Source of the DNA: Candidatus Uhrbacteria bacterium | GTDB taxonomy: Bacteria > Patescibacteriota > Patescibacteriia > UBA9934 > UBA10169 | DNA: 64,000 nt | Direction of reading: 5' to 3' | Assembly: GCA_016187485.1 (NCBI GenBank) | Contig: JACPJO010000003.1 | Coordinates: 25,587 to 89,586, forward strand | Shown: one piece after another, positions 8,546 to 29,985 of the stretch | How positions within the stretch are numbered: the stretch's first letter is position 1 | Layout of the letters: the number at the start of each line of letters is the position of its first letter | Made by a program: the position numbers and the translations under genes | Notes under the pieces: model-generated | What the model was told of the DNA's origin: nothing | Database searches by the model: none | What the model saw: only the letters and a program-made list of their open reading frames with translations

Positions 8546-8557
8546 GGAGGAACGACG

Positions 8558-9919: not shown

Positions 9920-9965
9920 CGTTCTTTTCTTTCGGGCCTCCACGGGGGCCCTTTCCAAATTGACT

Positions 9966-10781: not shown

Positions 10782-10796
10782 CCAAAAGGATAGGAG

Positions 10797-11324
10797 ATGC
10801 ACTTGCAAAAGCTCATTCTCTTTGTCTGTAGGGGGAACATCCATCGCTCTGTGGTTGCCGAGCTTCTGGCGCGCAAGCTTCTTGTGGCGAACGGCCACCC
10901 GGATGTAGAGGTTGGGTCCCGTGGCCTGCAGTGGTACATGGGCGAACCGCCTCGCCATCCAAATCTGATGCATTACCCGTCGGCGTGGGAAGGATCGCGG
11001 GAAGCTCTTGCCGAGCGTGAAGTTGATGTGTCCCGGCACATTGCTCGTCGGCTTGAGCTTGAGGACATGGAGCGCGCAGATGCTGTCATTGTGATGGATC
11101 AGGAACTTCTCCGAGACAGTCCGACGAGTGTTCTCAACCTCTTCCCTTCGTATGGGGAGAAGACGCATCTCTTCTCCGAGCTGATTGACAAGATTCAAGA
11201 TGTAGAAGATCGTGGTGAGTACGCAAGCACGTCCGAGTATCGTGCAGCCGTGGAGGAAATCGAATCGACGCTCGTTTCCGGCCTGCCCCGCCTTCTCTTG
11301 TGGGTCGGTGAGGGTGTTCCTTAG
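10797..11324 (+). CDS. low-molecular-weight protein tyrosine phosphatase / ArsC-like
   Basis: P-loop VCRGNIHRS (C-X5-R) 10 residues from the N-terminus. Size 175 aa. Confidence 0.7.
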   Translation: MHLQKLILFVCRGNIHRSVVAELLARKLLVANGHPDVEVGSRGLQWYMGEPPRHPNLMHYPSAWEGSREALAEREVDVSRHIARRLELEDMERADAVIVMDQELLRDSPTSVLNLFPSYGEKTHLFSELIDKIQDVEDRGEYASTSEYRAAVEEIESTLVSGLPRLLLWVGEGVP

Positions 11325-11347
11325 CAATTTTCCATAGAGGTTTTGCA

Positions 11348-12319: not shown

Positions 12320-12342
12320 GGATCCATGATCTCTTTCTCTCC

Positions 12343-12371
12343 CTCGTCCACGGACGAGGTTTCGACTTTTT
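12343..12371 (+). terminator. rho-independent terminator
   Basis: CCUCGUC-ACG-GACGAGG hairpin plus UUUCGACUUUUU. Confidence 0.4.
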
Positions 12372-12428
12372 ACAGCGTTTCGAAAACCCGCCGATGTGCA
12401 GCGGGTAGGACTTCTCTGGCGGCGTTCT

Positions 12429-12878
12429 CTAGCCAAGCCGTTCGAAGTATTGAAGAAATGTACGTGCGTCGCCCTTGCGGCTCGAAGAAAAAAAGCGTCG
12501 TCCATGCCGAGTGTCCACCGCGTAGAGGAGGTTCTGACGGTCGGCGAGCATCATGCGCTGGTAGACGGTGCCATTTGCCACCCGGAAGAATTTATACGTC
12601 GCGAACGTGACAGGCACGCGTTCCTCGAACGCGTGGGCATCCTCTTCCGTACCAAAGCCCGCGCGGACAAGGCGTACTCCCTCCTTCATGCGACTCCCGA
12701 GAAGGTGGAAGTAGTCCGTCGGGAGCGGCTTTGTGAGTTCCTCTGCAAGGTCCATGGTTACCAGAATCTCCTCCCTTGCATTACCAACGAGGGACATGGC
12801 AAGGGAAAGAATCTGGTCTGCCGGAACGCAACAGCGACCGACAAGGAGCCGGCACAATTGCTGTTTAATCATGTGCAC
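12429..12878 (-). CDS. hypothetical protein (149 aa)
   Basis: Balanced composition, and a divergent promoter-like region lies between it and the 13022 gene. The overlapping plus-strand ORF 12396-13025 is K/R-rich and would cover the RBS of the next gene. Confidence 0.4.
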   Translation of the reverse strand: MHMIKQQLCRLLVGRCCVPADQILSLAMSLVGNAREEILVTMDLAEELTKPLPTDYFHLLGSRMKEGVRLVRAGFGTEEDAHAFEERVPVTFATYKFFRVANGTVYQRMMLADRQNLLYAVDTRHGRRFFSSSRKGDARTFLQYFERLG

Positions 12879-13021
12879 CTCGATCCGTGTTTAAGATACA
12901 GGAAGCGCGGATACCAAGCAATCTTCCTCTTTCAGCGTTCCGTGCCGGGCAAGTTATCCACAAAAATGTTTGCGCGAAAGGTGCTTGTTTTGAATACTCG
13001 AGTCCTAGGAGGTGCCAAGCC

Positions 13022-13963
13022 ATGACGGATCTCGGTATTGCTGCATCGGTCGCGGCCAACCAGATGCACGGGGACGATGGAGACGGTCGGATTATTCTCG
13101 CTCACGGCGACATCCGCCCTCTGCAGAGTCAGGTTGAGTCTGCTCATCAGACGCTCGACAACGTGGACCAGATCTTCCCCCTCGAAACGGGGGAAGGGGG
13201 GTCGGCGCCGGTCGAGGTTGATACGTCGGCCAACATGCTCGCGCCTCCGCCCCGCACTGACCCGGAGATCATCCGGCAGCTCTGGGAGAAGGTGAAGGAC
13301 ATGCGACGTCGCCGCCGGGCGCGGATCGATGAAGCGTGGAGGCGGTTGGGTGAGCTCGGTCGCGCGGCAGTCGAGCAGGCCGGCCCGCCTTCGACGGATG
13401 CTGTCGCAGTGGCTCTGCGTGAAATCGTGGGGCACGCGTACGCGGCCGCCGAGGTTACCGAGACGCTCCAGCGCCTGGGAGTGCTCGTCTCGTCGCGGCA
13501 GTCTCTTCTCGAGACCATGCTCTTCTGGCGCCTGTCCGAGTCCGTTCGGACCGAGATGCGCCACCAGGACCTCCTTACCCTCGTGAACGTGTTCATCGAG
13601 GTCGAGGAAGGGTTCCCCTACGCCTGGCCGTTTCAATTGTCGCCGCTCGTGTTCCCCTTCATCTCGGAAGAGGCGAATCATGCCCTCGCGCTCCTTGAGG
13701 GCAAGGCTTTGGCCTGTTGGGCTCCGGAAGGGGACGACGAGCGCGCGCCGGTGGTGCACGACCTGGCGCTTGAAGTGCTTCACGCGGCCACTGTCTGCGC
13801 AGGCTCTTCGCGCGAGGCATGTGCGCACGACCTCAACTGGAGCAACTGGCGCTACGCCATGATGACGCTCAAGCGCTACCCCAAGTACTGGCGACTGTGG
13901 GGCGACGCGCTCCAGTTCCTCTCCGTTCATTTTTTCGGATCGACGCTCCTCGAGAACGTCTGA
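13022..13963 (+). CDS. hypothetical protein (313 aa)
   Basis: ATG with AGGAGG 8 nt upstream. TTGCGC-N17-AATACT promoter-like element upstream. The antisense ORF 12932-14011 is R-rich. Confidence 0.55.
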   Translation: MTDLGIAASVAANQMHGDDGDGRIILAHGDIRPLQSQVESAHQTLDNVDQIFPLETGEGGSAPVEVDTSANMLAPPPRTDPEIIRQLWEKVKDMRRRRRARIDEAWRRLGELGRAAVEQAGPPSTDAVAVALREIVGHAYAAAEVTETLQRLGVLVSSRQSLLETMLFWRLSESVRTEMRHQDLLTLVNVFIEVEEGFPYAWPFQLSPLVFPFISEEANHALALLEGKALACWAPEGDDERAPVVHDLALEVLHAATVCAGSSREACAHDLNWSNWRYAMMTLKRYPKYWRLWGDALQFLSVHFFGSTLLENV

Positions 13964-13976
13964 CACGACTTTTCTT

Positions 13977-14005
13977 GCGACGCCAAAAGCGTCGCTTTCG
14001 ACTTT
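13977..14005 (+). terminator. rho-independent terminator
   Basis: GCGACGC-CAAAA-GCGUCGC plus UUUCGACUUU. Confidence 0.45.
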
Positions 14006-14338
14006 ATACACACAGGCGCCCCGTTTTGTCGGAAACTCCTGACAACACTTTTGCGCAAGAATGAGTTGTTTTCGTAACCCTTGTTGGAAACTAATGACAG
14101 AAACTGCTTAGTTTAGCCAAAAAACCATTGACAAAACCGCATTTTTCTGGCGTAATGACACTGTTAACACGCTCGATATGCCCACAAATATATCGAGGAC
14201 CGCCGGCGGTCGGTAATCGCGAGGATGGAGGTGCTACAATCTATAGAGCTCGTGTGCGTCCGTGTGGAATGCTTATGGATGTACATGTGGCCACACGACT
14301 TTTTGGACAGTCCCTTATGGGACAAGCATCTCATCTAT

Positions 14339-14944
14339 ATGATGTCCCCTGAACGTATTGGATATCTACTCCTAGGCCTCACCCTCGCGGCCGCCGTTTT
14401 GTACGGACTCTTCGAGCTTCGGGCCCGTACGAACACACAACCGTCGTCGCAGGCGGAATCGAGAGAGGGGGAGACCCCGCTTCCGCCTGGCGATGAACTT
14501 GATCGGATCTTGGCTTCACTACCTTCGTCGGAACGTTCCACGTTCGATCCTGCATCGATCGAGTGGGTTCCCTACACCGACGGCACGGACAAGTTTTTCC
14601 TCGAACGTCCGCGTGGGTGGGAAATAACCGAGACGGCTCATGCAACCTATCCGGAGGCTCGACGCATTACCGTAGTCGAGGGGCAAGCGGCGTTCACAAT
14701 CTATCCGCGCGGGGAATTCGACTACGGTCTTCCGGCGCGTCCGTCAGCCAGTACGGCGGTCGCGGTAAGTGGACGACCGGCGACTCTGCGTGAGTGGAAT
14801 CTGCCAGATGGGTCTTGGCTTGCTGTTGCGACGCTCGATGAGCAGCCAACCGAGGGATTCCGCATCGAACTCTCGGTTCTGAATCCAAGTCTTGTCTCAC
14901 AGCAGATTCTACGCGAGATGCTTAGTCGCTTTCAGCTTCTCTAA
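14339..14944 (+). CDS. hypothetical membrane-anchored/secreted protein
   Basis: Start placed at MMSPERIGYLLLGLTLAAAVLYG (N-terminal hydrophobic anchor). The longer upstream extension lacks coding character. Confidence 0.4.
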   Translation: MMSPERIGYLLLGLTLAAAVLYGLFELRARTNTQPSSQAESREGETPLPPGDELDRILASLPSSERSTFDPASIEWVPYTDGTDKFFLERPRGWEITETAHATYPEARRITVVEGQAAFTIYPRGEFDYGLPARPSASTAVAVSGRPATLREWNLPDGSWLAVATLDEQPTEGFRIELSVLNPSLVSQQILREMLSRFQLL

Positions 14945-15050
14945 ATTTTTCTCCCAGATCTCCCTTGCTTCCTGCCTAGGATAGCAGGGGAGGTCTCCCA
15001 AGTAATTCTGCTTGGGCGGTCTCACGGTGATTCTGTCACTGGAGAGAGCC

Positions 15051-17342
15051 ATGTTTCGTGTTCCTTTCTTTCCTTCCATCCGCTTCCTGCCCCGCGTGTT
15101 CTGGATCGTCATGGCGTTCTTCCTGTTCTGCGAGAACGGCTGCAACCTGAAGAGCGCGGACGACATCGCCGCCCTGCGCGCGGAACATCCGGACGGTGCC
15201 AACACGGGCGGCGAGGACACGGGCCACGGTGAGGACGACGAGTCCCCGCCGCTGCCCGGCGGCAACGACGACGGCGGCGAGGGCGGACCCACCGACGAGT
15301 GGGGGAACCCACTCCCGCTCCTCTCGCTTCCCTTCGAGGAAGGCGACGCACGTCTGTGCACGCAAGGTGCCAACGACCTGCCGACGCACCAGTTCCCCTC
15401 CACCAAGTGGGGGGTGGACTGGGACACGAGCAACACGGTGGACGAACCGGTGTTCTCGCCGGTGCCGGGTGTGGTACACGTGCACGACGACCCCACGAAC
15501 GGGTTCGGCCGGCACGTGTGCGTGGAACTTGACGATGCGATCAACCGCTCCGTCTGTCTGGCCCACCTCGACGCGATTTTCGTCGCCGACGGCACTCACG
15601 TGCAGGCGGGACAGATCATCGGCATCGAAGGATGCACTGGCAACTGCACGGGCGACCACGTCCACATGGGGCTCATGGAGGGCGACCCCTCGGCAAGCGC
15701 CGACGACCTCCTCTCGATTCCCTTCGCGTACCAGACGCGTGACGTAACGACGGATGAAGTCATGGCCTACAGCCTGCCGGTCGAAGACCTTGTCTGCGGC
15801 CTCACGACGGGACATCACTACGAGTCGCAGCTGCGCGCGCCGCGCTGGCACCCCGACGGGGTGCTCGTGCAAGTACCGGGCAGCCCCGACATCTACGTGG
15901 TGGACCAGGGCACGCTCCACCTCATCGAGGACGAAGAAGTGTTCTCGAGCTACAACTGGAAATTCTCGAACGTCGTCCAGATCTCGCCGCGTGAGTTCGC
16001 GTGCTGGGACGTGGGGGAGACCCTCATGGTTCCCGAGTGCTACCGCGCCGCCGTAGATTCGAACGGGATGGCGTGGATGGCCTACGAGTGCGCGGACAAC
16101 CCCGGTCGTTTCCGGCGTCCCGTTCCTTTCCAGCCGGCGGAGGCCGTGCTTGACTCGTGGGGGATTGTCTCGGTGGCGCCCTCCGGCTCCGTGCTCGCGG
16201 CCACGCTCCTCTCCTACCCGGTCGGTGTCGGCCCTGCGTATCTGCGTGACGGCACGATCGTACGAGAAACGTCGAGCGATCAGCTCTACGTCATCATCGA
16301 GAGCGTCGCCATGCCTTTCGACGACCCCTCGGTGTGGGAAGTCCTGGGCCTCTCCCGGCTCCCCGTCATCGTCGTGCCAGACGGAACGCTCGAAAGCATC
16401 GTGCTCGCGACGGGCGACTGCGATGCCTATCAAGGGTGTGTGGACTGGACGCGCGTGCTGCAGTGTGGCGGCTCCATTTCCACCGACTGGGTGGAAGACG
16501 GCGGGACGGGCGGAGACGATCCTCCCGAAGACCCTGCTTGCCTCATGGATGCCGATGGAGATGGCGTGGTGGACTGTGACGACAACTGCCCGCTTCACGA
16601 CAACGCCGATCAGGGCGACGTGGACGCGGATGGTGTCGGCGACTCGTGCGATCCGGATGCCGACGGCGACAGCGTGCCAAACGGCGAGGACTGCGACATG
16701 TTCGACGCGAGTGTGGGCGAGTGCCCGCCTCCGGGCGACGACGATGCCGTGCCTGACGACGATGACGAAACGCCTCCAGCCGATGATGACGACTCGCACG
16801 ACGAGGAGCCGGAGCATCCGCCCGCAGACGACGACGCAACGGAGGACGTGCCTGACGACGACGTAACCGAAGAGCCGACGCCGTCCAGTGATGACGACAG
16901 CACGGATCCGCCCGAGGAACTCGAGGACGACCCAACGCCGCCGCCCACGCCCGACGATCCGCCGGTGATCGAGGGGACCTCGATTCTCGAGATCTTCTAC
17001 ACGCCGCCGCCGTTCCTTTCGCCCTACACCGAGATCTCTCTTTCGGGCGAGTACATTCTGGCGGACGGCTCCTACGGCCTCCTCTGGACGTCAGGACTCA
17101 TGACGATGGTGAACGCCGGAAGCCTCTACTTCCTTCTGCCCGGCGTCGCAAGCGGCGACACTTTCCGCTTCTCCATCGAGTTCTACGATGCGCCCATGAA
17201 CTACCTCAACTGGGCCTGCGTGCCGCCCGCGCCCTACGCAACGGCGGGCACGCTCTCGGCCTTCGTGGACGGCAACCCCGTCTCGATCGCCCTCATCGAC
17301 AACTTTCTCGGTGGTTGCGAAGACTTCGTCATGATTCCGTAA
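15051..17342 (+). CDS. large lipoprotein with M23 (LytM) peptidase domain, thrombospondin type-3-like Ca-binding Asp repeats and acidic tail
   Basis: GGAGAG RBS then MFRV...FFLFCENGC signal/lipobox. M23 motifs HxxxD...GxTGxCTGDHVHMGL. Repeats DADGDGVVDCDDNCP, DADGVGDSCDPDADGDS. D/E/P-rich low-complexity region. Confidence 0.75.
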   Translation: MFRVPFFPSIRFLPRVFWIVMAFFLFCENGCNLKSADDIAALRAEHPDGANTGGEDTGHGEDDESPPLPGGNDDGGEGGPTDEWGNPLPLLSLPFEEGDARLCTQGANDLPTHQFPSTKWGVDWDTSNTVDEPVFSPVPGVVHVHDDPTNGFGRHVCVELDDAINRSVCLAHLDAIFVADGTHVQAGQIIGIEGCTGNCTGDHVHMGLMEGDPSASADDLLSIPFAYQTRDVTTDEVMAYSLPVEDLVCGLTTGHHYESQLRAPRWHPDGVLVQVPGSPDIYVVDQGTLHLIEDEEVFSSYNWKFSNVVQISPREFACWDVGETLMVPECYRAAVDSNGMAWMAYECADNPGRFRRPVPFQPAEAVLDSWGIVSVAPSGSVLAATLLSYPVGVGPAYLRDGTIVRETSSDQLYVIIESVAMPFDDPSVWEVLGLSRLPVIVVPDGTLESIVLATGDCDAYQGCVDWTRVLQCGGSISTDWVEDGGTGGDDPPEDPACLMDADGDGVVDCDDNCPLHDNADQGDVDADGVGDSCDPDADGDSVPNGEDCDMFDASVGECPPPGDDDAVPDDDDETPPADDDDSHDEEPEHPPADDDATEDVPDDDVTEEPTPSSDDDSTDPPEELEDDPTPPPTPDDPPVIEGTSILEIFYTPPPFLSPYTEISLSGEYILADGSYGLLWTSGLMTMVNAGSLYFLLPGVASGDTFRFSIEFYDAPMNYLNWACVPPAPYATAGTLSAFVDGNPVSIALIDNFLGGCEDFVMIP

Positions 17343-17366
17343 GGGGAACGGACGCAACCACTCTTG

Positions 17367-17395
17367 CCCCGCCATTCGCGGGGCTTTCGAAATTT
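17367..17395 (+). terminator. rho-independent terminator
   Basis: CCCCGC-CAUUC-GCGGGG plus CUUUCGAAAUUU. Confidence 0.45.
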
Positions 17396-17439
17396 AGGAG
17401 GACTATTACTTCGGGGACCGTTCCCTCTATCGTTGTGGA

Positions 17440-17467
17440 AAGCTTTTTCCCCAGCGGTGCTATAATG
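17440..17467 (+). promoter_or_regulatory. extended -10 promoter (TGcTATAAT) about 12 nt upstream of the VirB6-like ATG (short leader)
   Basis: GGTGCTATAATG at 17456-17467. Start codon at 17479. Confidence 0.35.
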
Positions 17468-17478
17468 AACACCAGAAT

Positions 17479-20250
17479 ATGCGCGCGTGGATCAAACACG
17501 CCATTTCGGTTTTGGGAAGGAAAAAAATCTTGCCGCTTGTTTTGTTTTTTTTGCTCGTCCCCGCATTTGCGTTTGCGGCGGATACGGAAATTCCCGACGG
17601 CATCGAATCTTTTTTGCTTGTGATCGGCGGGCTCATGCTTCACGTGGTGAACGCGATGGGGAAACTCATCTCTACACTCATGGAGCTCGTGATTGTTCCT
17701 ATCATGCAGTACGACGGGTTTGCGTCGAGTAAGGTGATCGGCGCTGGGTGGGGAGTGGTGCGCGACATCATGAACATGGGGTTCATCGTGGCACTGCTCA
17801 TTATCGCCATGGTGACGATATTTGGCGGGCAAGTAGGATCATGGTCGGTGAAGTGGCAGCAGCAGATTCCGCGGCTTCTCCTTTTCGCTATCCTTATCAA
17901 CTTCAGCCGTCTTATTTGCAGCCTGCTTATTGATATTGGGCAGGTGTTCATGCTCACGTTCGCCAACGCCGTCAAAGACATCGCCGGTGGGAATATTATC
18001 CAACTCTTTGGTTTGCCGGATATTGTCAGCTTTGATACCGACAAAATCGCCAAACTCTTGGAAAAGGATCCAAACGGGCAGGGAGTGGATCCCTTTGGGC
18101 TTTTCGCTTCGGCATTTTTGGCGCTCATCATGATGCTTGTTGTGCTTGGCACCATGATTATTCTTACCGTCGTTCTTATCTACCGCATCGTAATGCTTTG
18201 GATTTTGGTTGTTCTCTCGCCGCTCGCATTTTTCTTTGGTGGCGCTAAAGGACTTTTTGGTAGCAAGGTGAAACCCTATGAAGACTGGTGGGCGAAGTTC
18301 ACAGGCTCTGTGGCCGTCGGTCCCGTGCTCATTTTCTTCTTATGGCTCACGCTTTCGGTAGCGGGAAGCGGTAATATTGCAGCGTCGGAAGAGTTCCCCG
18401 TGGGCACATCCGCACGGACAGATTTTGATGCAAGCGGTCCAAACGGCAACCAATTTTTGATCCGCATCGGCGAACCTGGACGACTTTTAAGCTTCATTAT
18501 CGGCATTGGCATGATGTATGCGGGTTTTGAAGCAGCCACGAGTTTTGCCGGCGCGCTTCCGGGCGCCGCATCCAAATTGGTATCGGGCGGCGTGCGCGGC
18601 GCGCTTGGCATTGGGGCGGGAGCGACGGCGGGCGCTGCTTTGTTGGCCGGACGCGGCGCGCTCAAGGCGGGCGCGCTTGGTGCGCGTGGCGCCGCAGCTG
18701 TTGGGGGTGCAGGTTTTGGGTTTCTGGCAAAAACAGGTGGAGGTCAAGCGGTTCAAAGCGCTGTGGCGGGAGCGGCTCGTGGGCTTGGAGGCGCGCTTCA
18801 GGGAACGGGTGCTCTTGGTGCGGCGTTGGGGCTTCGTGCTCTTGGACGCAAGGCAACGCGTACGGGCACCGAGCTTGAGGAGAACCGCCGTACCGCTCTT
18901 GCGGAGCGCGTGAAGAAAGAGGGCGAGGACGTTAAGGAATACACAAAGGATGAAATTGACGCGAACTTGAAGTCGAAAGCACTGACACCAGACGGCGTGG
19001 CGCGTCAGCAGGCTATGCGCTATCGCGTGCTTACGGACGACAAACTGCGTAAAGAGTACGACCAGGAAGATCTCCAGAAGATGGTGGGCGAGTTTGAAAA
19101 AGCCGGAGGCGAGGAAATGCTTCATGGCGACCACGACATGGAGAAGAAGTACAAGGATGCGTTGAAGAAGCGGCCGGACTTGATTGGCGATCCGGCGAAA
19201 CGCGAAAAGGTGATTGGCGAACTGGATGAGACAGAGATCTTGGGACTCGACGCCGACGCGTATAAAGACGGTGCTGTGCAATCTCGCCTCAAGGAGATGA
19301 AGTGGTACGACCGCGGAGCCAATAAAGAAATCTCTATGTACGATCGCATCAAGGGCGGTCGTGGCGGCGTGAAGAAATCTCTCCAGAAGGCTTTGGAGGA
19401 AGCCGAATCCGGGAAAACACTTGATGCCACAAAGATTTCGGACGATGGAACCCGTGCGCTTCCGGAATCCAAACAGACGGAAGCAAACTTGGCAGAACTG
19501 GCGAGACAAGACAAGAATGATGCGCGGCCACTTGGGAAGCTCACCAGTCTGGTGGAATCGCCTAATTTCCAGATTCAGCGCCTTGATGTTGGTCTGTTGA
19601 ACGATCCCAAAGCGGCAGCAGCGCTTGCCGCAGCAACCCCGCAAGCGCTCTCGCGTTTAGCGCAGCACCCCGAACAGTCCTCCGCATTCCAGGCGGGTCT
19701 TGCCGAGGCACTGGCGGATCCGGCGGTCGCAGGCAAAACGAAAGGTCAAATGCGCGAGGCGATGCTCATGAGCGCGGGCGACAGCAGCAAACTGCACGAA
19801 TCGTTTGGCTACAACCAAACAACAAACACTGTTTCGACAGAAGGAGCCGCGGCACTCAAGTCAGCGCTCAAAGCACGTCCCGAACTTGCCATTAAATTTG
19901 GCGGGGATATCACGGTGAAAAACGGGTTTGGGAAAGCAATCGCGGCCAACATCGACATTAATCAGCTAAGCCAGGCATACCGTTCTGCCGACGCGACGCA
20001 GAAAGACGACTACGCGAAGGTCTTTGAAAATCTCGGCGATCTTCTTGACGATCGTACGATGGAACTTGAGCGCACGGTGGAGGATCGTACACTGGTGAGC
20101 AAGATAGCTATCCAGAATCAACTTGCAGGAATTTCGCTCTCGGACGGAGAGCGCGCGGCGATTGATGCTCTGCATGCAACAGAAAAAGAGTTAGCCGCTA
20201 TCAAGCGCAACATGGATAATTTCCGCCGCCTCAACCCCAATAGTACCTAA
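17479..20250 (+). CDS. VirB6/TrbL-like polytopic membrane protein with Gly/Ala-rich segment and long C-terminal coiled-coil domain
   Basis: 923 aa. Signal peptide (LVPAFAFAAD), at least 6 TM helices in the first about 330 aa, GAGA-rich linker, then about 450 aa of charged coiled-coil-like sequence. Sits at the head of a VirB3/VirB4 cluster. Confidence 0.5.
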   Translation: MRAWIKHAISVLGRKKILPLVLFFLLVPAFAFAADTEIPDGIESFLLVIGGLMLHVVNAMGKLISTLMELVIVPIMQYDGFASSKVIGAGWGVVRDIMNMGFIVALLIIAMVTIFGGQVGSWSVKWQQQIPRLLLFAILINFSRLICSLLIDIGQVFMLTFANAVKDIAGGNIIQLFGLPDIVSFDTDKIAKLLEKDPNGQGVDPFGLFASAFLALIMMLVVLGTMIILTVVLIYRIVMLWILVVLSPLAFFFGGAKGLFGSKVKPYEDWWAKFTGSVAVGPVLIFFLWLTLSVAGSGNIAASEEFPVGTSARTDFDASGPNGNQFLIRIGEPGRLLSFIIGIGMMYAGFEAATSFAGALPGAASKLVSGGVRGALGIGAGATAGAALLAGRGALKAGALGARGAAAVGGAGFGFLAKTGGGQAVQSAVAGAARGLGGALQGTGALGAALGLRALGRKATRTGTELEENRRTALAERVKKEGEDVKEYTKDEIDANLKSKALTPDGVARQQAMRYRVLTDDKLRKEYDQEDLQKMVGEFEKAGGEEMLHGDHDMEKKYKDALKKRPDLIGDPAKREKVIGELDETEILGLDADAYKDGAVQSRLKEMKWYDRGANKEISMYDRIKGGRGGVKKSLQKALEEAESGKTLDATKISDDGTRALPESKQTEANLAELARQDKNDARPLGKLTSLVESPNFQIQRLDVGLLNDPKAAAALAAATPQALSRLAQHPEQSSAFQAGLAEALADPAVAGKTKGQMREAMLMSAGDSSKLHESFGYNQTTNTVSTEGAAALKSALKARPELAIKFGGDITVKNGFGKAIAANIDINQLSQAYRSADATQKDDYAKVFENLGDLLDDRTMELERTVEDRTLVSKIAIQNQLAGISLSDGERAAIDALHATEKELAAIKRNMDNFRRLNPNST

Positions 20251-20251
20251 C

Positions 20252-21766
20252 ATGGAGGACGTGTCTCCCGCCCAATCTGCCGCGTATCCAACGGAGGTCT
20301 ACGACATCTTAGCCGATGAGAGCTCTATCGATGTGATTCGCGCTATCATGCGCGACCATCATTTGGAAGAGAAAGCGTATGAGGTGCTTGCGCCAATTCA
20401 GCGTCTGATGGTAGAGGGGAAGTTGGAACCGAAAAATCTTTCGGCGCGTTTTGAGGAACGGCTGAAGCTTCCACCGGAGCAGGCGCGCGTCTTGGCTCAC
20501 GACGTCCTGCAAAAACTTCTACGTTCTCTTGCACCGTGGATCCCTGCGATTTCTTCTGCCATGAATGAAACGGGAGTCTCCCCGATCGTCCCTGCTCCCG
20601 TGCCGGACCTTCCCGTCCCGCTTACTCCCATGATGTTTGTGGAGCGTGAACTAGAGAAGTTTCACTTGGAGCTGCCGGAACCTCGCGTGCAGGACCGCTT
20701 TCGTACACTGCTTGCAAATTTTGTCGCCGGCTCCAAGCCGCGCGCAGAGGTAATGGACATGCTCACACGGGCACGAAAAGTGGGAGGGCTGGAGCTTGAT
20801 GCTGCAGCGTCTGAAGAACTCCTGCGCGGATTAGAAGAAGAGGCAAAAAATACCGTGATCGCCAAACCACTCAAGCCGGAAGTTCCTGTGCGTCTTCCCC
20901 CGCTTCCTCAACCCGCATCCGCTCCTGTCGCCCCGCAAAAAAAATTCGAGGCAGAAACGATAAAACCCGAAGATCAATCGGAAGTGGAAGCGCACAAAGG
21001 ACGTATCCCGACTCACCCCCCTCTGCACAACATAGACGAAGCGATGGCAGAGGTTGTGAAAGTTGCAAAGGCGCTTGCCTTGTCCGAAAAAGAGGCACGT
21101 CAGTTTTCGCACATTGCGGATACGCGTTTGAAAGATGTGCGGGATGCCTACGCAACGCGGCGTGCGCTTGAAGATGAACCGGTCTTTGGTGGTCTCGGAC
21201 TTTCTGGCACCCGCCTCTCGCAAGCCTTAGAAATTATTGAGGGGGCTTACAGCCGGCTTGAACAGTCTGCACACGAGACGCTGCGCCAGCAACGTGATGC
21301 GTACATCCGCGCGCGTCAGGAAAAACACCTCAAGCCGGAAATACCGGAACCAGATTCTTCGTCTCTACCCGCACCCGTTCCCTCGTCGCCTCCGCCACAT
21401 GCTTCGCGCGGGCGCGTGCAAGATGTTGCCCCGCCTCGGCGTTTGTCCGGACCACTGGAAGAGCTTGCCACGATGGGGCTAGCCGATTTCCGCCGGTTGG
21501 GCGCAAATGAAAGAGAATCCTCCGACCGCATTGTTCAGATGTTGGAACTTCTCGGCGAAGAGTCCTACGGGAAACGTCTAGCGGGACTTCAGGCTTGGCG
21601 TAAGAGTCCACTTACCGCCCAATACATTTCCCTCCTCACGCAGGCTCTGCGTGACCACAAGTCCGTGGCAGACATTCTGGCGGTTCATCGTAAAGTAGGG
21701 GAGGATACCCTCTCGCTTGGGGAGTTTCAAGCGCTGGTTCTCCTCAACGGAAGACTGAAGATTTGA
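20252..21766 (+). CDS. hypothetical soluble protein (504 aa) with Pro-rich linkers
   Basis: Tightly packed (2-nt gap) after the VirB6-like gene. No recognisable family. Confidence 0.45.
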   Translation: MEDVSPAQSAAYPTEVYDILADESSIDVIRAIMRDHHLEEKAYEVLAPIQRLMVEGKLEPKNLSARFEERLKLPPEQARVLAHDVLQKLLRSLAPWIPAISSAMNETGVSPIVPAPVPDLPVPLTPMMFVERELEKFHLELPEPRVQDRFRTLLANFVAGSKPRAEVMDMLTRARKVGGLELDAAASEELLRGLEEEAKNTVIAKPLKPEVPVRLPPLPQPASAPVAPQKKFEAETIKPEDQSEVEAHKGRIPTHPPLHNIDEAMAEVVKVAKALALSEKEARQFSHIADTRLKDVRDAYATRRALEDEPVFGGLGLSGTRLSQALEIIEGAYSRLEQSAHETLRQQRDAYIRARQEKHLKPEIPEPDSSSLPAPVPSSPPPHASRGRVQDVAPPRRLSGPLEELATMGLADFRRLGANERESSDRIVQMLELLGEESYGKRLAGLQAWRKSPLTAQYISLLTQALRDHKSVADILAVHRKVGEDTLSLGEFQALVLLNGRLKI

Positions 21767-21778
21767 TATACTCGACCT

Positions 21779-22234
21779 GTGCAGTCCCAATTTACTGTTC
21801 CACAATTCATAGATGCCGAGGATAAAATTATCGGACCGATCACGGTTCGGCAGTTTGTCATCCTGCTTGTGGCGGGACTCTTAGCCACGCTCTTTTATCG
21901 CCTCTTTGATTTCTCCTTATTCCTCTTGATAGCGGTACCCCTTCTTATGTTTTCGGGACTTCTTGCGTTCATGAAAGTAAACGGCGTACCGGTGCATTTT
22001 TTCATCTTGAACGTTATTCAGACGTTTCGCCGTCCGGCGCGTCGCGTATGGGATAAATCCCTTACAGACGCCCAACTGAAAGAGCGCATGCACGCAGAAG
22101 TAGTTGTCGCGTTACCGGAAACTCCGCGAAAAGCGCCGCTCAATAGCTCGCGTATCGCGGACCTGTCGCTTATTGTAAACACGGGTGGTGTGTACAACCC
22201 TGACGAAGATACGGTGTATGGCTCGCAAAAATGA
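21779..22234 (+). CDS. PrgI/VirB3-like small two-TM protein
   Basis: N-terminus FTVPQFIDAEDKIIGPITVRQFVILLVAGLLAT resembles the PrgI-family start (IPKD...GLTxRQ) followed by two TM helices. Position immediately upstream of VirB4. Confidence 0.5.
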   Translation: MQSQFTVPQFIDAEDKIIGPITVRQFVILLVAGLLATLFYRLFDFSLFLLIAVPLLMFSGLLAFMKVNGVPVHFFILNVIQTFRRPARRVWDKSLTDAQLKERMHAEVVVALPETPRKAPLNSSRIADLSLIVNTGGVYNPDEDTVYGSQK

Positions 22235-22916
22235 TCCGCAAAAACAAAAGAAGGCTAAGCCGGGATTGCCGACCCAGCGGTATCTTGATATCGCGGAGGT
22301 TCGGGAAGACAGTGTGGTGCTGAAAGACGGAACGATGCGTGCCGTGCTTATGGTCTCGAGCATTAACTTTGCGCTCAAAAGCGAGGACGAGCAGACCGCG
22401 ATTATCCAGAGCTATATGGCATTTTTGAACGCGCTTGAATACCCCATTCAAGTCGTCATCCAGTCGCGCAAGATGAATATTGATCGTTATCTGAAGACGC
22501 TTGCGAGTGCTGAGCGCACGACGCAAAACGATGCGCTACGCAATCAAATCACCGATTACCGTGCCTTTGTGCGCGAGCTGGTGAGTCTTGGCGAGATCAT
22601 GGAGAAGCGTTTTTACGTCGTCGTCCCTTATGACCCACACACGGACAAAGGAAAGGGATTTTTCCGCCGCTTGAAGGAATCGCTCTCTCCCTCCACCGTA
22701 CTTCGTCTCAAAGCCAAGCAATTTGCAGACCGGTTGGAGCAACTCAATCGCCGTGTCTCTATTATCCAGGGGGCACTGCAGAGCATGTCGCTTAGTAGCG
22801 CGCGTCTGGACACACAGGGACTCATAGAACTCTACTACATTGCGTACAACCCTGACGTGTTTGAGCAAGAGCGTATGACGGATATTTCTAAACTGCGCGT
22901 GGAAGAAAACTTTTAG
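22218..22916 (+). CDS. VirB4/TrbE N-terminal-domain-like protein (separate cistron)
   Basis: LDIAEVREDSVVLKDGTMRAVLMVSSINFALKSEDEQ matches the CagE/TrbE/VirB4 N-terminal pattern (KDGSL...F.L.G.D..S.SEEE). Start chosen at MARKNDPQ, overlapping the preceding gene by 17 nt. Stop TAG lies 2 nt before the ATG of the ATPase ORF. Confidence 0.5.
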   Translation: MARKNDPQKQKKAKPGLPTQRYLDIAEVREDSVVLKDGTMRAVLMVSSINFALKSEDEQTAIIQSYMAFLNALEYPIQVVIQSRKMNIDRYLKTLASAERTTQNDALRNQITDYRAFVRELVSLGEIMEKRFYVVVPYDPHTDKGKGFFRRLKESLSPSTVLRLKAKQFADRLEQLNRRVSIIQGALQSMSLSSARLDTQGLIELYYIAYNPDVFEQERMTDISKLRVEENF

Positions 22917-22918
22917 TT

Positions 22919-24895
22919 ATGGCTTTTGACGTTTCACAATTAAAACGCGATGCGACTTCGAGCGCGCCACAGGCGGCGCCGACGCTTTCGGATAAAGAAA
23001 TCCAAGAACAGGAGACGACACAACTTATTGAAGAGGAGCGCATTTATGCGCGCGGCACGGCGGCGGTGCGCGACCTCATTGCGCCCGCGGCGTTTGAAGT
23101 GAACCCGCGCTTTCTTCTGCTTTCAGGCGTGTATGTGCGCACGATCTTCATTGTCAATTATCCGCGGTACGTGTCGGTGGGGTGGTCGGCGTCTATCATC
23201 AACATGAACAAGACGTTTGACGTCGGCATGTTCTTCTATCCCGTGAAGGCCTCCATTATTCTCAAGCAATTGCAGAAGAAAGTCGGCGTGCTTGAAGCGG
23301 GAATTGCGGGCGATCACGAAAAAGGCAAGCCGCGCGATCCTATTAAGGAAACGGCACTTCGCGACATTGAACAATTGCGCGACGACCTCACACAAGGTAT
23401 TGAGCACTTTTTCCAGTTTGCTTTCTATCTGACTATCTATGCCAAGACCGAAGACGATCTGGACCGGCTAAGCGGGGAGATTGAGTCTGAGTTTGGCGGG
23501 AAGCTCATCTTCAGCAAAAAAGGTTTTTATCAGTCCGAGCAGGGATTCAACTCTACGCTCCCGCTTGGCAATGACGAACTCCTCATTACGTTTAACATGA
23601 ACACCTCGCCTATCGCGAGTTCATTCCCGTTCATTTCTGCCGATCTCACTTCCGACAACGGTATTCTCTATGGCGTAAATCGGCACAACAACAGTTTGAT
23701 TATCTTCGATCGGTTCAGCCTGCAAAACGCGAACTCTGTGGTCTTTGCTACGTCGGGTGCGGGGAAAAGTTATGCCATTAAACTGGAGATCATCCGCTCG
23801 CTGATGCTTGGCACGGAAGTGATTGTGATTGACCCGGAGATGGAATACAAAACGCTCTCCGAAGCGGTGGGCGGAACATATGTAAACATCTCGCTTTCGT
23901 CAGAGGCGAAAGTCAATCCTTTTGACCTCCCGCGTCCCAAAGGAGAGGAGGCCGATGTTGACGACATTATCCGTTCGGCGGTCATTACGCTTAAGGGATT
24001 GCTCCGTATCATGATTGGTCAACCGATCGGGGGGAGCTCGGTGATTGGCTTTACCCCGCAGGAAGATTCTATTTTGGATCGAGCGCTCATTGAAACGTAC
24101 GCCAAGAAAGACATTACGGCAGAGACGCGAGACCTTACGGGGCTTGAAATGCCCATCATGCAGGACTTGATTGATATACTTGCGGGCATGGAGGGGGCGG
24201 GGAATTTGGTGGAGCGGCTGGAAAAGTACGCAACGGGCACCTTCTCAGGACTCCTCAATTCTCCAACCACAGTGGAAATGAACAACCAGTTGGTGGTCTA
24301 TTCCGTGCGTGATTTGGAGGATGAACTGCGCCCCACGGCGGTGTATACCATCGTGAACCACATTTGGAACGTGGTGAGGTCGGAACGCAAAAAGCGCCTA
24401 TTGGTGATCGATGAAGCCTGGTGGCTCATGCAACATGATGATTCGGCGAAATTCATTTTCGCACTTGTGAAGCGTGCGCGCAAATACTATTTGGGCGTCA
24501 CGACGATCACACAGGATGTGAATGACTTTTTGCGCTCGCCCTACGGACAGGCGATCGTGACGAACTCGTCGCTCCAACTTCTTATGAAGCAATCCCCGGC
24601 GGGGGTAGAATTAGTGAAAGAGACTTTTCACTTAACGGACAACGAAAAATATCTTCTTCTGGAGGCTGGCGTGGGAGAGGGGATTCTTTTCGCGGGAAGC
24701 AAGCATGCGGCGATTAAAGTCGTTGCCTCGTATAACGAAGATCGTATTATTACAACGAACCCCGAACAACTGCTGCGTATAGAGGAAGAGCGGGCAAAGG
24801 CGGCGGCAGAGAACGCTCCAACGGAGACTGGAGGAAGGCCGGATATTCGCACGCAAGCGGCGGCGGCGCTTGAGGCGCCCGAAAATCTTGTATGA
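22919..24895 (+). CDS. VirB4/TrbE/PrgJ-family type IV secretion ATPase (C-terminal two-thirds)
   Basis: Walker A ATSGAGKS, Walker B LLVIDEAWW, and an upstream segment GVYVRTIFIVNYPRYVSVGW typical of VirB4. 658 aa, with Walker A at about residue 270; this suggests the N-terminal domain is supplied by the upstream ORF. Confidence 0.8.
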   Translation: MAFDVSQLKRDATSSAPQAAPTLSDKEIQEQETTQLIEEERIYARGTAAVRDLIAPAAFEVNPRFLLLSGVYVRTIFIVNYPRYVSVGWSASIINMNKTFDVGMFFYPVKASIILKQLQKKVGVLEAGIAGDHEKGKPRDPIKETALRDIEQLRDDLTQGIEHFFQFAFYLTIYAKTEDDLDRLSGEIESEFGGKLIFSKKGFYQSEQGFNSTLPLGNDELLITFNMNTSPIASSFPFISADLTSDNGILYGVNRHNNSLIIFDRFSLQNANSVVFATSGAGKSYAIKLEIIRSLMLGTEVIVIDPEMEYKTLSEAVGGTYVNISLSSEAKVNPFDLPRPKGEEADVDDIIRSAVITLKGLLRIMIGQPIGGSSVIGFTPQEDSILDRALIETYAKKDITAETRDLTGLEMPIMQDLIDILAGMEGAGNLVERLEKYATGTFSGLLNSPTTVEMNNQLVVYSVRDLEDELRPTAVYTIVNHIWNVVRSERKKRLLVIDEAWWLMQHDDSAKFIFALVKRARKYYLGVTTITQDVNDFLRSPYGQAIVTNSSLQLLMKQSPAGVELVKETFHLTDNEKYLLLEAGVGEGILFAGSKHAAIKVVASYNEDRIITTNPEQLLRIEEERAKAAAENAPTETGGRPDIRTQAAAALEAPENLV

Positions 24896-25446
24896 GCAGA
24901 CGAACAAAAATCACTGTCCTCTTACTGGTTCTTTTGCTTGCGCTTCTTTTGTGGTGGCTTTTGCGTCGCAAGGAAGAGATAGTGACGCCGGTACAAAACC
25001 AGCCAGCGGCAGAAGAGCAAGCCACGCCAACAAAGACATCTCTCGTCGCGCCGCTTGTGGTGCGTGAAAGCGCTAGCGAAGAAGAAGCGGGAGCGGTGGC
25101 GGTGGCGCGCATGTTTGCCGAACGTTATACAAGCTTTTCGTCTGAGAGCGATTTTGCCAACGTGCGTGATCTCTTTCCGCTCATGACCGCGTCTCTTTTG
25201 GCAAAAGAAGAAGCGCGTATACATGCGGCAGGCACAGAGGGCGCGTATCTGGGCATCACGTCGTCCGTCGTTACCATTGCAACAGTGGAGATGGATGAAG
25301 CACGGGCGGTGGTGGATGTTGGTCTACAACGACAAATAACACAGGGAGAAGAACGCGTACGCGAGACCCGCTACGAGACGCTGCGCCTTACGCTTATACA
25401 AGAAGAAGGGGAGTGGTTGGTGTCCGTGGCGGCGTGGCTCAAATAG
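24892..25446 (+). CDS. hypothetical membrane-anchored protein (184 aa)
   Basis: ATGA overlap with the VirB4 stop. N-terminal TM ITVLLLVLLLALLLWWLL. Confidence 0.5.
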   Translation: MSRRTKITVLLLVLLLALLLWWLLRRKEEIVTPVQNQPAAEEQATPTKTSLVAPLVVRESASEEEAGAVAVARMFAERYTSFSSESDFANVRDLFPLMTASLLAKEEARIHAAGTEGAYLGITSSVVTIATVEMDEARAVVDVGLQRQITQGEERVRETRYETLRLTLIQEEGEWLVSVAAWLK

Positions 25447-25452
25447 ACTCCT

Positions 25453-26124
25453 ATGTGGCAATGGTTTCTTGAGGGGTTGTTTCCGCGTCTGTGCGTGCGC
25501 TGTGGCAAGGAGGGAGCCGATGTATGCCCGACGTGCTTTGCTACGGTTTTTGAAAATGCGCCGCGGTTGGCGTGCCCCGTGTGCAACACATACTCCTCGA
25601 TTGGTGCGCGGTGTGGTTCGTGCAAAGGGGCCCTCGACGGGCTTTTATTTTGTGCATCCTACGCGGATCCTGTGGTGCGCGGTCTTATTGAGCGCTGGAA
25701 GTTTTCGTTTGCGCGCACCGTTGAAGAATCTCTGGCACAACTTTTTTCGCGTGCCCCACTGGATCGAGCGCTGGCCGGTGACGACTGGGTAGTGGTTCCT
25801 ATTCCGCTCCACGCAAAACGCAAACGCTGGCGCGGGTTCAATCAAGCAGAGTGGGTGGCACGACAGGTGGGGACGCGTCTGCGGCTTCCCGTGGTTCAGG
25901 CGCTTGCGCGCACGCGTGCGACAACGCAACAAGCACGCCGCTCCGCTGAACAAAAAAAGAGAGGGGACCTCTCTGGCGTATTTGAGGCCGCACAACCCGT
26001 CACCGGCCGGGTGATTCTCTGTGATGATGTTTACACCTCTGGCGCCACGATGGAAGCTGCTGCCTCGGCCCTCAAACAGGCCGGCGCTACATCCGTCTGG
26101 GGTGTCGCCATTGCACGGAGTTAG
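25453..26124 (+). CDS. comFC: ComF-family protein (double zinc-ribbon plus phosphoribosyltransferase domain)
   Basis: CxxC...CxxC pairs at the N-terminus, then RGFNQ and ILCDDVYTSGATM PRTase motifs. Confidence 0.8.
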   Translation: MWQWFLEGLFPRLCVRCGKEGADVCPTCFATVFENAPRLACPVCNTYSSIGARCGSCKGALDGLLFCASYADPVVRGLIERWKFSFARTVEESLAQLFSRAPLDRALAGDDWVVVPIPLHAKRKRWRGFNQAEWVARQVGTRLRLPVVQALARTRATTQQARRSAEQKKRGDLSGVFEAAQPVTGRVILCDDVYTSGATMEAAASALKQAGATSVWGVAIARS

Positions 26125-26232: not shown

Positions 26233-26489
26233 ATATGCCCATCGTCTACGTCCTATTAAGCGATAAAACAGGCAGGCATTATACGGGGTCTTCTCGTGAC
26301 GATAACGTGGACGGTCGTCTCAAGAGGCATAATACTGGCCTTGTTCAATCCACAAAGCATGGTAGGCCTTGGCGTGTTGTACTCACGCAGATGTACGATA
26401 CGTACCGTGAGGCAAGAAAGCAGGAATTGTTTCTCAAATCTGGTGTGGGTCGTGAGAAATTGAGAGAGTTCTTTAATGATCCAAAACAC

Positions 26490-26787
<298 letters not shown>

Positions 26788-26875
26788 GGAGAGGTGGCCG
26801 AGTGGTTGAAGGCACCGGTCTTGAAAACCGGCAGACCGAAAGGTCTCGTGAGTTCGAATCTCACCCTCTCCGCCA
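26788..26875 (+). tRNA. tRNA-Ser (anticodon UGA), type II, CCA encoded
   Basis: Acceptor GGAGAGG/CCUCUCC, anticodon stem CCGGU/ACCGG with loop CUUGAAA, variable arm CAGACCGAAAGGUCUC, T arm GUGAG-UUCGAAU-CUCAC. Confidence 0.85.
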
Positions 26876-27893: not shown

Positions 27894-29057
27894 ATGTCAT
27901 CAGCAACCAAGGTACTGTTGAGTTTCATCCTTGGGGTCATTGTGGGCTGGGCAGGCTTCGCGGCCTACGGCAACAATGCAGCTCCATTGGACGAGGAGGG
28001 TGGGGAGGAACGGGCGGATATCGAGGCTTCCGAGCCGATTACGCTCGGCTTTATTGGCCCTCTCACTGGGGATGCGGCGTCGCTGGGGCTCGCCTCGCGC
28101 GCGGCCGTAGAGCTGGCGGTGGAGGACGTCAACCAGGACGGAGGAGTGAACGGACACCGCTTGGAGGTCATTTATGAAGACGGTCAATGCAACCCAACCG
28201 CGGGGACCAACGCGGCGGCGAAGCTCATGAACGTGGACAAGGTACCACTCATCATCGGTGGCTTGTGCTCCAGCGAGACGTCGGCCTTTGGCCCGGCAGC
28301 CATGCAGAACAAGACGGTAGTACTTTCGTACTGCTCGTCCGCGCCGTCTCTGTCGGATCTCGGAAAGTATTTCTTCCGCGACTATCCGTCTGACTTGGGA
28401 CAAGGAAAGGTGGCGGCAGAGTATGCCTTCGAAAAACTCAAAGCCCAGAACGTTGCTGTTTTGTTCCACGACACAGCGTGGGGAACAGGACTTCGGGACG
28501 TGTTCAAGGGGCGCTTTGAAGAACTTGGCGGAAAAATCGTAAGCGTGGACGGAGCGCCGCAAGATTCGCGTGACTACCGCACTGTGCTCACCAAGATTAA
28601 GAACTCCGCGCCTGATGTCATTTACTTTGCCGGCTATCCGGAGGGCAGCATCGCGGCCTTGAAGCAAGCGAACGAGCTTGGGATTACTACACAGTTCCTC
28701 GGCGGGGATGCATGGGACGACCCGAAGCTGCACACAGAAGTGAGCGGAAAGGGATCCTATCGCTATGTCGTGCCTGTGGCGAACTTCCCTGAAGATTTCA
28801 AGAGTCGGTTGCTTGGAAAGACGGGCGGCGAGCAAGTGCCGATCTGCGCCCCGCAGGCTTATGATGCGGTGAAAGTTGCCACGGAAGTGCTGAAGGCCGT
28901 TGGTACGGATCCAGATAAGATTGAGCAAGCAATGCGCAAAGTGAATTACTACGGCGTCTCCGGCCAGATTGCTTTCGACGAAAAAGGAGATTTGACGAGC
29001 GGCTCGTATGCGATCCGCGAAGTGAGGGGGGGAAGTTCCGTCGAGGTAAGCGAATAG
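27894..29057 (+). CDS. branched-chain amino acid ABC transporter substrate-binding protein (LivJ/K-like, type I PBP)
   Basis: N-terminal TM/signal anchor, then ITLGFIGPLTGDAASLG...VNGHRLEV typical of LivK-family binding proteins. Confidence 0.8.
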   Translation: MSSATKVLLSFILGVIVGWAGFAAYGNNAAPLDEEGGEERADIEASEPITLGFIGPLTGDAASLGLASRAAVELAVEDVNQDGGVNGHRLEVIYEDGQCNPTAGTNAAAKLMNVDKVPLIIGGLCSSETSAFGPAAMQNKTVVLSYCSSAPSLSDLGKYFFRDYPSDLGQGKVAAEYAFEKLKAQNVAVLFHDTAWGTGLRDVFKGRFEELGGKIVSVDGAPQDSRDYRTVLTKIKNSAPDVIYFAGYPEGSIAALKQANELGITTQFLGGDAWDDPKLHTEVSGKGSYRYVVPVANFPEDFKSRLLGKTGGEQVPICAPQAYDAVKVATEVLKAVGTDPDKIEQAMRKVNYYGVSGQIAFDEKGDLTSGSYAIREVRGGSSVEVSE

Positions 29058-29108
29058 GGAAAAACAAAACAGCCCACAGGGCTGTTTTGTTATTGGGCGC
29101 GTTTTGTT

Positions 29109-29984: not shown

Positions 29985-29985
29985 T

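Follow-up and report, generated by a model that had tools for sequence, protein, structure and literature searches.

The closest described relatives of the locus analyzed here are the type IV secretion systems (T4SSs) of Patescibacteria. In a survey of 3,035 genomes from this group, 2,425 VirB4 proteins grouped into one monophyletic clade within MPF_FATA (Quinonero-Coronel et al. 2025, PMC12102498). According to the same survey, TrsD, PrgI/VirB3, VirB6, and VirB2-like pilins are widespread in Patescibacteria, with TrsD as the most abundant T4SS accessory component, which is also essential in Southlakia epibionticum; some VirB1 analogs contain a Peptidase_M23 domain, and VirB8 homologs are almost confined to the class ABY1. 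Relaxases are nearly absent and type IV coupling proteins (T4CPs) are rarely close to virB4, and the genomic context reported for ABY1 comprises comF, recG, and radA, whereas in most other classes the T4SS is located near dnaA/dnaN and not near comF (PMC12102498). The T4SS of S. epibionticum, which has neither a coupling protein nor a relaxase, was found by transposon sequencing (Tn-seq) to be essential for epibiotic growth (Wang et al. 2023, PMC10633639), and a review from 2025 ranks the Patescibacteria T4SSs as a new branch of the superfamily (PMC12857230). Here we describe a locus at positions 15051-26124 of a 64-kb window (i.e. the whole stretch of DNA that was analyzed) from one contig of a metagenome-assembled genome (MAG) of Candidatus Uhrbacteria. 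To judge from its gene content and synteny, the locus is almost certainly a chromosomally fixed T4SS of the Patescibacteria type, characteristic of ABY1 and representing a monoderm (MPF_FATA-derived) machine; it is an instance of the system already described in the literature of 2023-2025 and not a new kind.

The locus consists of eight co-directional open reading frames (ORFs) on the + strand, in agreement with an earlier reading of this DNA made without database searches (henceforth the sequence-only reading), which had placed the genes at the same coordinates. The first gene, encoding an M23 peptidase, is separated from the VirB6-like gene by 136 nt, and the subsequent junctions measure +1, +12, -17, +2, -4, and +6 nt; the run is thus tightly packed, as had been claimed, from position 17479 onward, but not at the M23/VirB6-like junction. 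A scan of the region 13.9-27 kb for promoter and terminator consensus sequences gave no matches above the shuffled expectation, and five tRNAs were the only Rfam matches. The window holds the complete monoderm-type inner set, i.e. VirB4 together with TrsD, VirB3, VirB6, and VirB8.

The VirB4 ATPase (22919-24895, +) is of the MPF_FATA-like variety: its best-scoring NCBIfam model is the CD1110 family (3e-99, 333 bits against a cut-off of 325), it is also matched by Pfam P-loop_TraG (9.5e-27), and its P-loop (ATSGAGKS) and Walker B motif (LLVIDE) are both intact, which bears out the original ATPase label. The PrgI/VirB3-like small membrane protein (21779-22234, +) matches PrgI PF12666 (6.5e-11, 43 bits against a cut-off of 27), and its single long hydrophobic stretch (residues 21-65, three overlapping windows) leaves room for the two transmembrane (TM) helices that had been proposed for it. 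Between these two genes lies that of a TrsD/TraC-like homolog of the VirB4 N-terminal domain (22218-22916, +, in an ORF open from 22185). In NCBIfam it is matched by the N-terminal part of VirB4_plasma (5e-10), by TrsD (1.2e-6), and by positions 2-168 of the CD1110 model, i.e. it covers the N-terminal ~170 positions of the VirB4 models, and its orthologs carry the PF26593 TraC-like domain.

The 923-aa protein encoded at 17479-20250 (+) gave zero Pfam or NCBIfam matches in a direct scan, even at E<=10, and was recognized as an extended VirB6/TrbL-like protein by transitive homology to PF04610. Its residues 17-422 align to the homolog P0111 (E 1e-50, 33% identity), in which residues 105-294 correspond to PF04610 TrbL/VirB6 (32.6 bits against a gathering cut-off of 25.9); three more homologs match PF04610 at or near the cut-off, and several of those found by phmmer carry PF04610/PF19590. 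The search yielded 152 phmmer homologs, of which the taxon-named ones are all from Patescibacteria (MAGs of Giovannoni-, Uhr-, Nomura-, and Buchananbacteria), except one labeled Sediminibacterium. Family-averaged hydropathy reveals ~7 hydrophobic segments within residues 17-354, a region with 37-48% identity, followed by a Gly/Ala-rich linker (residues 371-480; 26% Ala, 25% Gly) and a hydrophilic, K/D/E/A-rich C-terminal part of ~440 aa with 6-20% identity among orthologs, in which the total length is nevertheless kept (median 962 aa). The VirB6/TrbL-like label of the sequence-only reading can therefore be retained on the strength of homologs above the TrbL cut-off and of the polytopic topology, with no direct profile match. 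When the family profile was compared with PDB sequences, all matches fell on the C-terminal half and were to coiled-coil proteins (vimentin, dynactin, SMC, TolA); we considered homology of the extension to these proteins and rejected it in favor of a compositional explanation. Of the 450-aa coiled-coil domain proposed earlier, the hydrophilic C-terminal extension stands and its coiled-coil nature is plausible. The protein as a whole is an "extended VirB6", which is a known architectural class, with an extension whose role is not known (PMC12857230).

The gene between virB6 and prgI encodes a 504-aa protein (20252-21766, +), termed here p504. Direct Pfam and NCBIfam scans were empty even at E<=10, no Pfam domain was found in ten long members of its family, and neither a TM segment nor a signal peptide was detected. 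AlphaFold models of p504 and of the 184-aa protein discussed below were built on shallow alignments (5 and 10 sequences, the former for the 184-aa protein). That of p504 (pLDDT 78, pTM 0.27) comprises four all-alpha modules (residues ~10-108, 122-205, 236-365, and 397-504) connected by disordered Pro-rich linkers, and gave no match in a fold comparison; this accords with the earlier description of a 504-aa protein of unknown kind. The conserved parts are the C-terminal module and two "VGGLGL" motifs. An exhaustive profile search retrieved 4,314 cluster representatives at E<=1e-3 and 1,934 at 1e-30, and the named family members are from Patescibacteria. The two most distant homologs retrieved are also encoded between a gene for a VirB6-like protein of ~930-960 aa and prgI, with TrsD, VirB4, a gene for ~200 aa, and ComFC coming next. 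The protein p504 is a conserved, unannotated, lineage-specific cytoplasmic component of this type of operon.

The 184-aa protein encoded immediately after VirB4 (24892-25446, +) gave no family match in direct Pfam and NCBIfam scans, and comparison of its family profile with PDB sequences yielded nothing beyond noise from TM and low-complexity segments. In its AlphaFold2 model, a TM helix at the N-terminus is joined by a disordered linker to an alpha+beta domain, which is predicted with confidence (pLDDT mostly >85 for residues 60-184). As expected of the VirB8 family, the predicted protein is bitopic, has an extracytoplasmic NTF2-like domain, and is encoded in a T4SS cluster; by fold comparison of the model we assign it as a VirB8/PrgL-like subunit, in agreement with the near-restriction of VirB8 to ABY1. 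It is the "small anchored protein" of the sequence-only reading.

The first gene of the locus (ORF 15012-17342, +, with ATG at 15051) encodes a lipoprotein-like M23 metallopeptidase. Besides the Peptidase_M23 domain (Pfam 3.6e-12), it contains TSP3-like Asp repeats, which in Pfam remain below the cut-off (0.006) and are matched by an NCBIfam model of the MtsC type (4e-10), with two DxDxDGxxDxxD motifs, as well as an acidic Pro/Asp-rich linker and a C-terminal domain; its N-terminal hydrophobic segment terminates in FLFCENGC. The protein also has an NCBIfam peptidoglycan hydrolase match, and these features agree with the M23 lipoprotein with Asp repeats inferred previously. We considered the possibility that the M23 domain is degenerate and inactive, with the canonical HxxxD apparently altered to KWGVD, and rejected it: an upstream His, the DxD, and GDHxH are conserved in the 30 sequences displayed out of 45 aligned. 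The protein is probably active as a wall hydrolase, and we presume that it is a component of cell-wall remodeling with a role analogous to that of VirB1.

ComFC (25453-26124, +), the final gene of the packed run, starts 6 nt past the VirB8-like gene. It is matched by TIGR00201 comF (4e-24), GntX (1e-23), and Pfam DZR_2 and Pribosyltran, i.e. a zinc ribbon and a phosphoribosyltransferase-like domain, and it possesses four CxxC motifs and the PRPP-loop motif DDVYTSGAT; here, too, the initial identification was right. It is followed by a 97-aa GIY-YIG ORF (26235-26528, +), the 3' end of which overlaps by ~39 nt the first of two tRNA-Ser genes (26490-26582 and 26788-26875). A called GIY-YIG gene after ComFC is also present in the related locus L083. 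In L009, L020, and L040, and on the opposite strand in L007, GIY-YIG matches occur at 1-5 kb from ComFC on its downstream side.

In order to place the locus in its lineage, we scanned one genome per GTDB species for VirB4 and confirmed the relatives by tblastn. This yielded 547 VirB4 relatives, of which the best 80, all from MAG records and 67-81% identical, were kept. About 45 of the 80 kept loci are labeled Uhrbacteria, Patescibacteria group, or Parcubacteria. We also observed the operon, at 67-77% VirB4 identity, in L004, L006, L010, L014, L016, and ~30 other loci from MAGs titled "uncultured Gammaproteobacteria bacterium" or, in one case, "Candidatus Kapaibacterium"; these record titles are evidently wrong or placeholders. 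Proteins 100% identical to the 184-aa protein and to p504 are recorded as the hypothetical proteins HYW18_01115 and HYW18_01095 of Candidatus Uhrbacteria bacterium, a lineage that we take to belong to class ABY1 (GTDB). An origin from the Candidate Phyla Radiation (CPR) is right despite the GC content of 51-66% and the presence of a LIV-type ABC transporter.

Comparison of the window proteins by tblastn with 82 related loci (the denominators below are loci with enough flank) shows that order and strand of the operon genes are the same wherever the contigs of the relatives extend far enough, which answers the call of the sequence-only reading for a synteny check across related genomes. TrsD and PrgI are in place in 78/78 loci each, p504 is found between virB6 and prgI in 65/65, the VirB6-like gene in 54/54, the M23 gene upstream in 42/49, and the 184-aa VirB8-like gene in 75/76, and ComFC is immediately downstream in all 71 loci in which this could be judged. 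The GC content of the locus ranges from 37% to 65% across the relatives, and VirB4 identity stays at ~72%. This spread of GC content, combined with VirB4 proteins 67-81% identical and a conserved gene order, argues that the operon is inherited vertically, evidently under purifying selection, and is not an integrative and conjugative element (ICE).

Some genes farther downstream accompany the operon in its relatives. The RecG helicase (33582-35636, +; RecG_wedge, DEAD, and Helicase_C) is a syntenic neighbor but no T4SS subunit, and in 22/30 loci it occurs no farther than 10 kb downstream of virB4; RadA/Sms (35657-36931, -), another syntenic neighbor, comprises a KaiC-type ATPase, a zinc ribbon, and Lon_C/ChlI, and occurs within 10 kb downstream in 17/30. 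The radA start is overlapped by 16 nt by the gene of a secreted, Cys-rich 400-aa protein (36916-38118, -), which combines PF18895 T4SS_pilin (4.1e-8, 33.6 bits against 26.6) with a 3D domain (5.9e-5) and is found within 10 kb downstream in 12/30 loci. It consists of a signal peptide, a Cys-rich N-terminal domain, a two-helix hairpin (residues ~129-191) with two TM segments and a weak TrbC/VirB2 match, and a Cys-rich C-terminal 3D domain of the MltA/RlpA-like kind. This gene is the sole pilin-like ORF in the window and disproves the earlier statement that no pilin is present there; it is located ~11 kb downstream of the run, ~12 kb or roughly 12-15 coding sequences (CDS) from virB4, within the window of +/-20 CDS used in PMC12102498. 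The protein is a candidate pilin or anchored wall-hydrolase component; polymerization of a 400-aa fusion as a pilus is doubtful, and instead of a polymerizing pilin the protein may represent an anchored wall hydrolase. The next gene encodes a membrane-anchored DsbA-like thioredoxin (38115-38780, -; Thioredoxin_4 5e-25, DSBA 9e-12, TM segment 11-29), which is syntenic in relatives where the flank allows and possibly oxidizes the Cys-rich pilin/3D protein. Between the DsbA-like gene and clpC we found genes for a 414-aa anchored protein with a weak match to PD40 beta-propeller repeats (38783-40027, -), syntenic in the few relatives with flanks reaching that far, and for a 212-aa protein with two TM segments (40030-40668, -), neither of which belongs to a recognized family.

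Two alternative readings would deny that the locus is an intact, chromosomally fixed system. The TrsD-like part lies in frame 0 and the ATPase part of VirB4 in frame 2, with a stop codon and 2 nt between them, which might indicate a virB4 gene broken by a frameshift (a pseudogene or an assembly error) and an inactive system. This reading is refuted because the two-gene arrangement is conserved, being complete in 80/82 related loci with ORFs of 224-270 aa and 635-739 aa; moreover, the upstream gene represents a recognized family (TrsD/PF26593 TraC-like), the very component that is most abundant in Patescibacteria T4SSs and essential in S. epibionticum. We regard a frameshift as practically out of the question, and the "split VirB4", put forward earlier as a peculiarity, is best described as the conserved TrsD + VirB4 pair. 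The locus might also be an ICE, or the decayed remnant of one, inserted beside the tRNA-Ser genes: VirB4 scores into CD1110, a family of conjugative elements, and two tRNA-Ser genes and a GIY-YIG gene are located just downstream. However, the same gene order and context (ComFC, then RecG/RadA) are maintained in ~80 species-level genomes with GC content of 37-65%, every gene is intact, and VirB4 is strongly conserved. In addition, a Pfam scan of 58 of the 64 window ORFs of >=70 aa in a greedy map revealed no relaxase, coupling protein, FtsK-like translocase, integrase, or recombinase, in accordance with the claim that VirD4 and a relaxase are missing from the window, and the flanks are of a housekeeping nature (RecG, RadA, ClpC, HtpX, LemA, GlmM, Mur ligase, RseP, PheST). 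An ICE origin is therefore very improbable, and the tRNA-Ser genes after ComFC are not an integration scar. As the DNA-processing and DNA-presenting machinery for export is missing from the scanned ORFs according to Pfam, the locus does not conjugate, and the non-conjugative chromosomal apparatus envisaged in the sequence-only reading is supported in this respect.

As to the function of this chromosomal T4SS, the best overall explanation is that it serves contact-dependent traffic with a host, and its role as a host-interaction conduit is likewise probable. A complex of VirB4 and TrsD, docked via PrgI on a membrane channel of VirB6 and VirB8, would energize a conduit across the envelope, for which the M23 enzyme, and perhaps also the 3D-domain protein, would open the wall. 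The conduit would extend to the host cell that carries the epibiont. The direction we prefer is the uptake of host nucleic acid or other macromolecules, and on the cytoplasmic side the imported material would be passed first to ComFC and next to RadA/RecG. Import of nucleic acid specifically is a tentative proposal, to which we give somewhat less than an even chance. It is favored by the position of ComFC, 6 nt after the VirB8-like gene and immediately downstream of it in every locus with sufficient flank, by the genes of RecG and RadA that follow, and by the literature: the authors of the survey propose import (PMC12102498), and a 2026 preprint reports a patescibacterium that feeds on RNA and has tubular structures directed toward the host, which may be T4SS pili (bioRxiv 10.64898/2026.06.21.733656). 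A more elaborate variant, in which p504, as a so far undescribed core subunit of the T4SS of the ABY1 type, would replace the missing T4CP as substrate receptor or coupler and, with ComFC, form a T4SS-dependent system of nucleic-acid import from the host distinct from competence based on ComEC and type IV pili, is rather improbable.

Several observations weigh against uptake. In S. epibionticum deletion of comEC ended competence but not viability (PMC12857230), and the essentiality of its T4SS is therefore not explained by classical DNA uptake. ComFC, RecG, and RadA are housekeeping proteins, and their adjacency could be non-functional in a compact genome. Furthermore, 5,713 T4CP homologs are known from 2,918 Patescibacteria genomes (PMC12102498), and the window covers 64 kb only. 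Since the linkage to comF is specific to a class and comEC is dispensable, export remains a serious rival: the same machine would work outward, exporting proteins/effectors or assembling an adhesive or pilus-like structure on or in the host cell, and its proximity to ComFC, RecG, and RadA would be accidental. Such a role would suit the finding that growth of S. epibionticum needs the T4SS and not comEC, as well as the lack of a universal comF link, with the T4SS of most other classes near dnaA/dnaN. It would also suit the fast evolution of the extracellular-looking parts, namely the VirB6 C-terminus, the M23 protein, and the pilin/3D protein (31-35% identity versus 72% for VirB4), as expected if they face the host. 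Yet protein-secreting T4SSs mostly employ a T4CP as well, and none is found near here; no candidate effector genes were recognized in the window; and a ComFC gene that keeps its place in 71/71 loci exceeds a loose neighborhood. On balance we regard outward transport as less likely than not.

The surroundings of the locus contain further genes. Directly upstream of the M23 gene is that of a 239-aa protein with a single TM segment (14225-14944, +); among the relatives it is shared by the closest one alone (L001, 55% identity) and is hence outside the conserved operon. The region 1-14000 is GC-richer (up to 65.5% at 4-8 kb versus ~55% elsewhere). It encodes proteins resembling an S9 prolyl-oligopeptidase and a tryptophan 2,3-dioxygenase, along with several long ORFs that match no family; gene calls there are uncertain, as long ORFs overlap on both strands (e.g. 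12887-13963, +, and 12932-14011, -). In two relatives we found giant proteins of 3,175 aa (L002, 1-2747) and 3,512 aa (L083, 1-4555), with faint similarity to CBM_4_9, encoded upstream of the T4SS operon; a single 188-aa gene separates the giant gene of L083 from the VirB6-like gene, between the end of that of L002 and the M23 gene there are ~4.7 kb with six genes, and the window has no counterpart in this position. Between ComFC and RecG, the window encodes a complete LIV-type branched-chain amino-acid ABC transporter (27894-32289, +), comprising a binding protein, two permeases, and two ATPases; weak matches to the binding protein (24-25% identity) are also located near the operon in L001 and L003.

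Patescibacteria account for much of the diversity of bacteria, and how they exploit their hosts is far from settled. Few of their machines have been demonstrated to be indispensable for epibiotic life, and the T4SS is one of them (Wang et al. 2023). The window provides a clean and complete example of the ABY1 arrangement and sharpens its parts list: a VirB8-fold subunit, a fixed TrsD + VirB4 pair, an extended VirB6, the widespread p504, and ComFC as the last gene. Of these, p504 and the ComFC gene at the end of the run offer handles for testing the published idea of nucleic-acid import from the host.

Among the systems with which the locus can be compared, the proteins with extended VirB6 (TraG of F, RvhB6 of Rickettsiales, and MPF_FA VirB6 of 700-900 aa) share with the 923-aa protein a polytopic core and a large, hydrophilic, poorly structured C-terminus, but the extension itself has no detectable sequence similarity to theirs. 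The import machines ComB of Helicobacter pylori and Ced of Archaea, which employ VirB4-family ATPases and have no relaxase, resemble the locus only in the proposed function. ComB, which cooperates with ComEC/ComF, is built from VirB2-4/6-10 in a diderm envelope and has a core in the outer membrane, whereas CedA/A1/A2 are used by Ced. The locus contains neither the ComB nor the Ced set; no genes of the VirB7/9/10 type are present in the window, and the similarity of its ATPase to CedB/CedD is weak and local to the P-loop region (CedB 1.4e-10, 40 bits against a cut-off of 700). The features shared with the Gram-positive conjugative MPF_FATA systems (PrgH-L of pCF10, Trs of pGO1, CD1110 of CTn2, Tcp of pCW3) are PrgI, VirB4, TrsD (in the pGO1 subclass), the VirB8-like PrgL/TcpC fold, a VirB6-like polytopic protein, and a dedicated peptidoglycan hydrolase. 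However, those systems reside on plasmids or ICEs and move DNA outward with the aid of a relaxase, an oriT, and a T4CP (PcfC/TcpA), none of which was found in the window with its fixed chromosomal operon; their hydrolases are of the SLT/CHAP rather than the M23 kind, and the VirB6 of the window is "extended".

The T4SS of S. epibionticum ML1 (SEML1_0006-0019), the sole member of the group with experimental data (essential by Tn-seq), has in common with the locus the monoderm-type subunits, wall-hydrolase genes, and pilin-like genes, as well as the lack of a recognizable coupling protein or relaxase. It differs in its location (S. epibionticum belongs to the class Saccharimonadia and its T4SS is near the origin, whereas the locus in the window is beside comF/recG/radA), in the pilins (six VirB2-like ones inside the cluster, versus one pilin-domain fusion 11 kb away), and in that a structural VirB8 homolog was not found in the S. 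epibionticum proteome (PMC12102498) and is found here. The closest agreement is with the Patescibacteria-clade T4SS as a whole (PMC12102498). The 504-aa family between virB6 and prgI, the divergent ~440-aa C-terminal extension of VirB6, and the fusion of a pilin hairpin to a 3D domain, in a pilin that is atypically large (400 aa), are absent from its published description; they form an undescribed remainder that does not affect the classification. Shared are the VirB4 of the MPF_FATA type, the separate TrsD, PrgI/VirB3, VirB6, the M23 wall hydrolase, the VirB8 homolog of the ABY1 type, the PF18895 VirB2-like pilin, and the chromosomal setting without a relaxase or a nearby T4CP in the neighborhood of comF, recG, and radA. 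The sequence-only reading had regarded this composition as only partly described; contrary to that view, TrsD, PrgI, VirB6, the M23-containing VirB1 analogs, VirB8, PF18895, and the comF/recG/radA context had already been reported in the survey of 2025, and the resemblance to the T4SS-like systems of CPR bacteria, which it had noticed, amounts to a point-by-point match in gene content and context.

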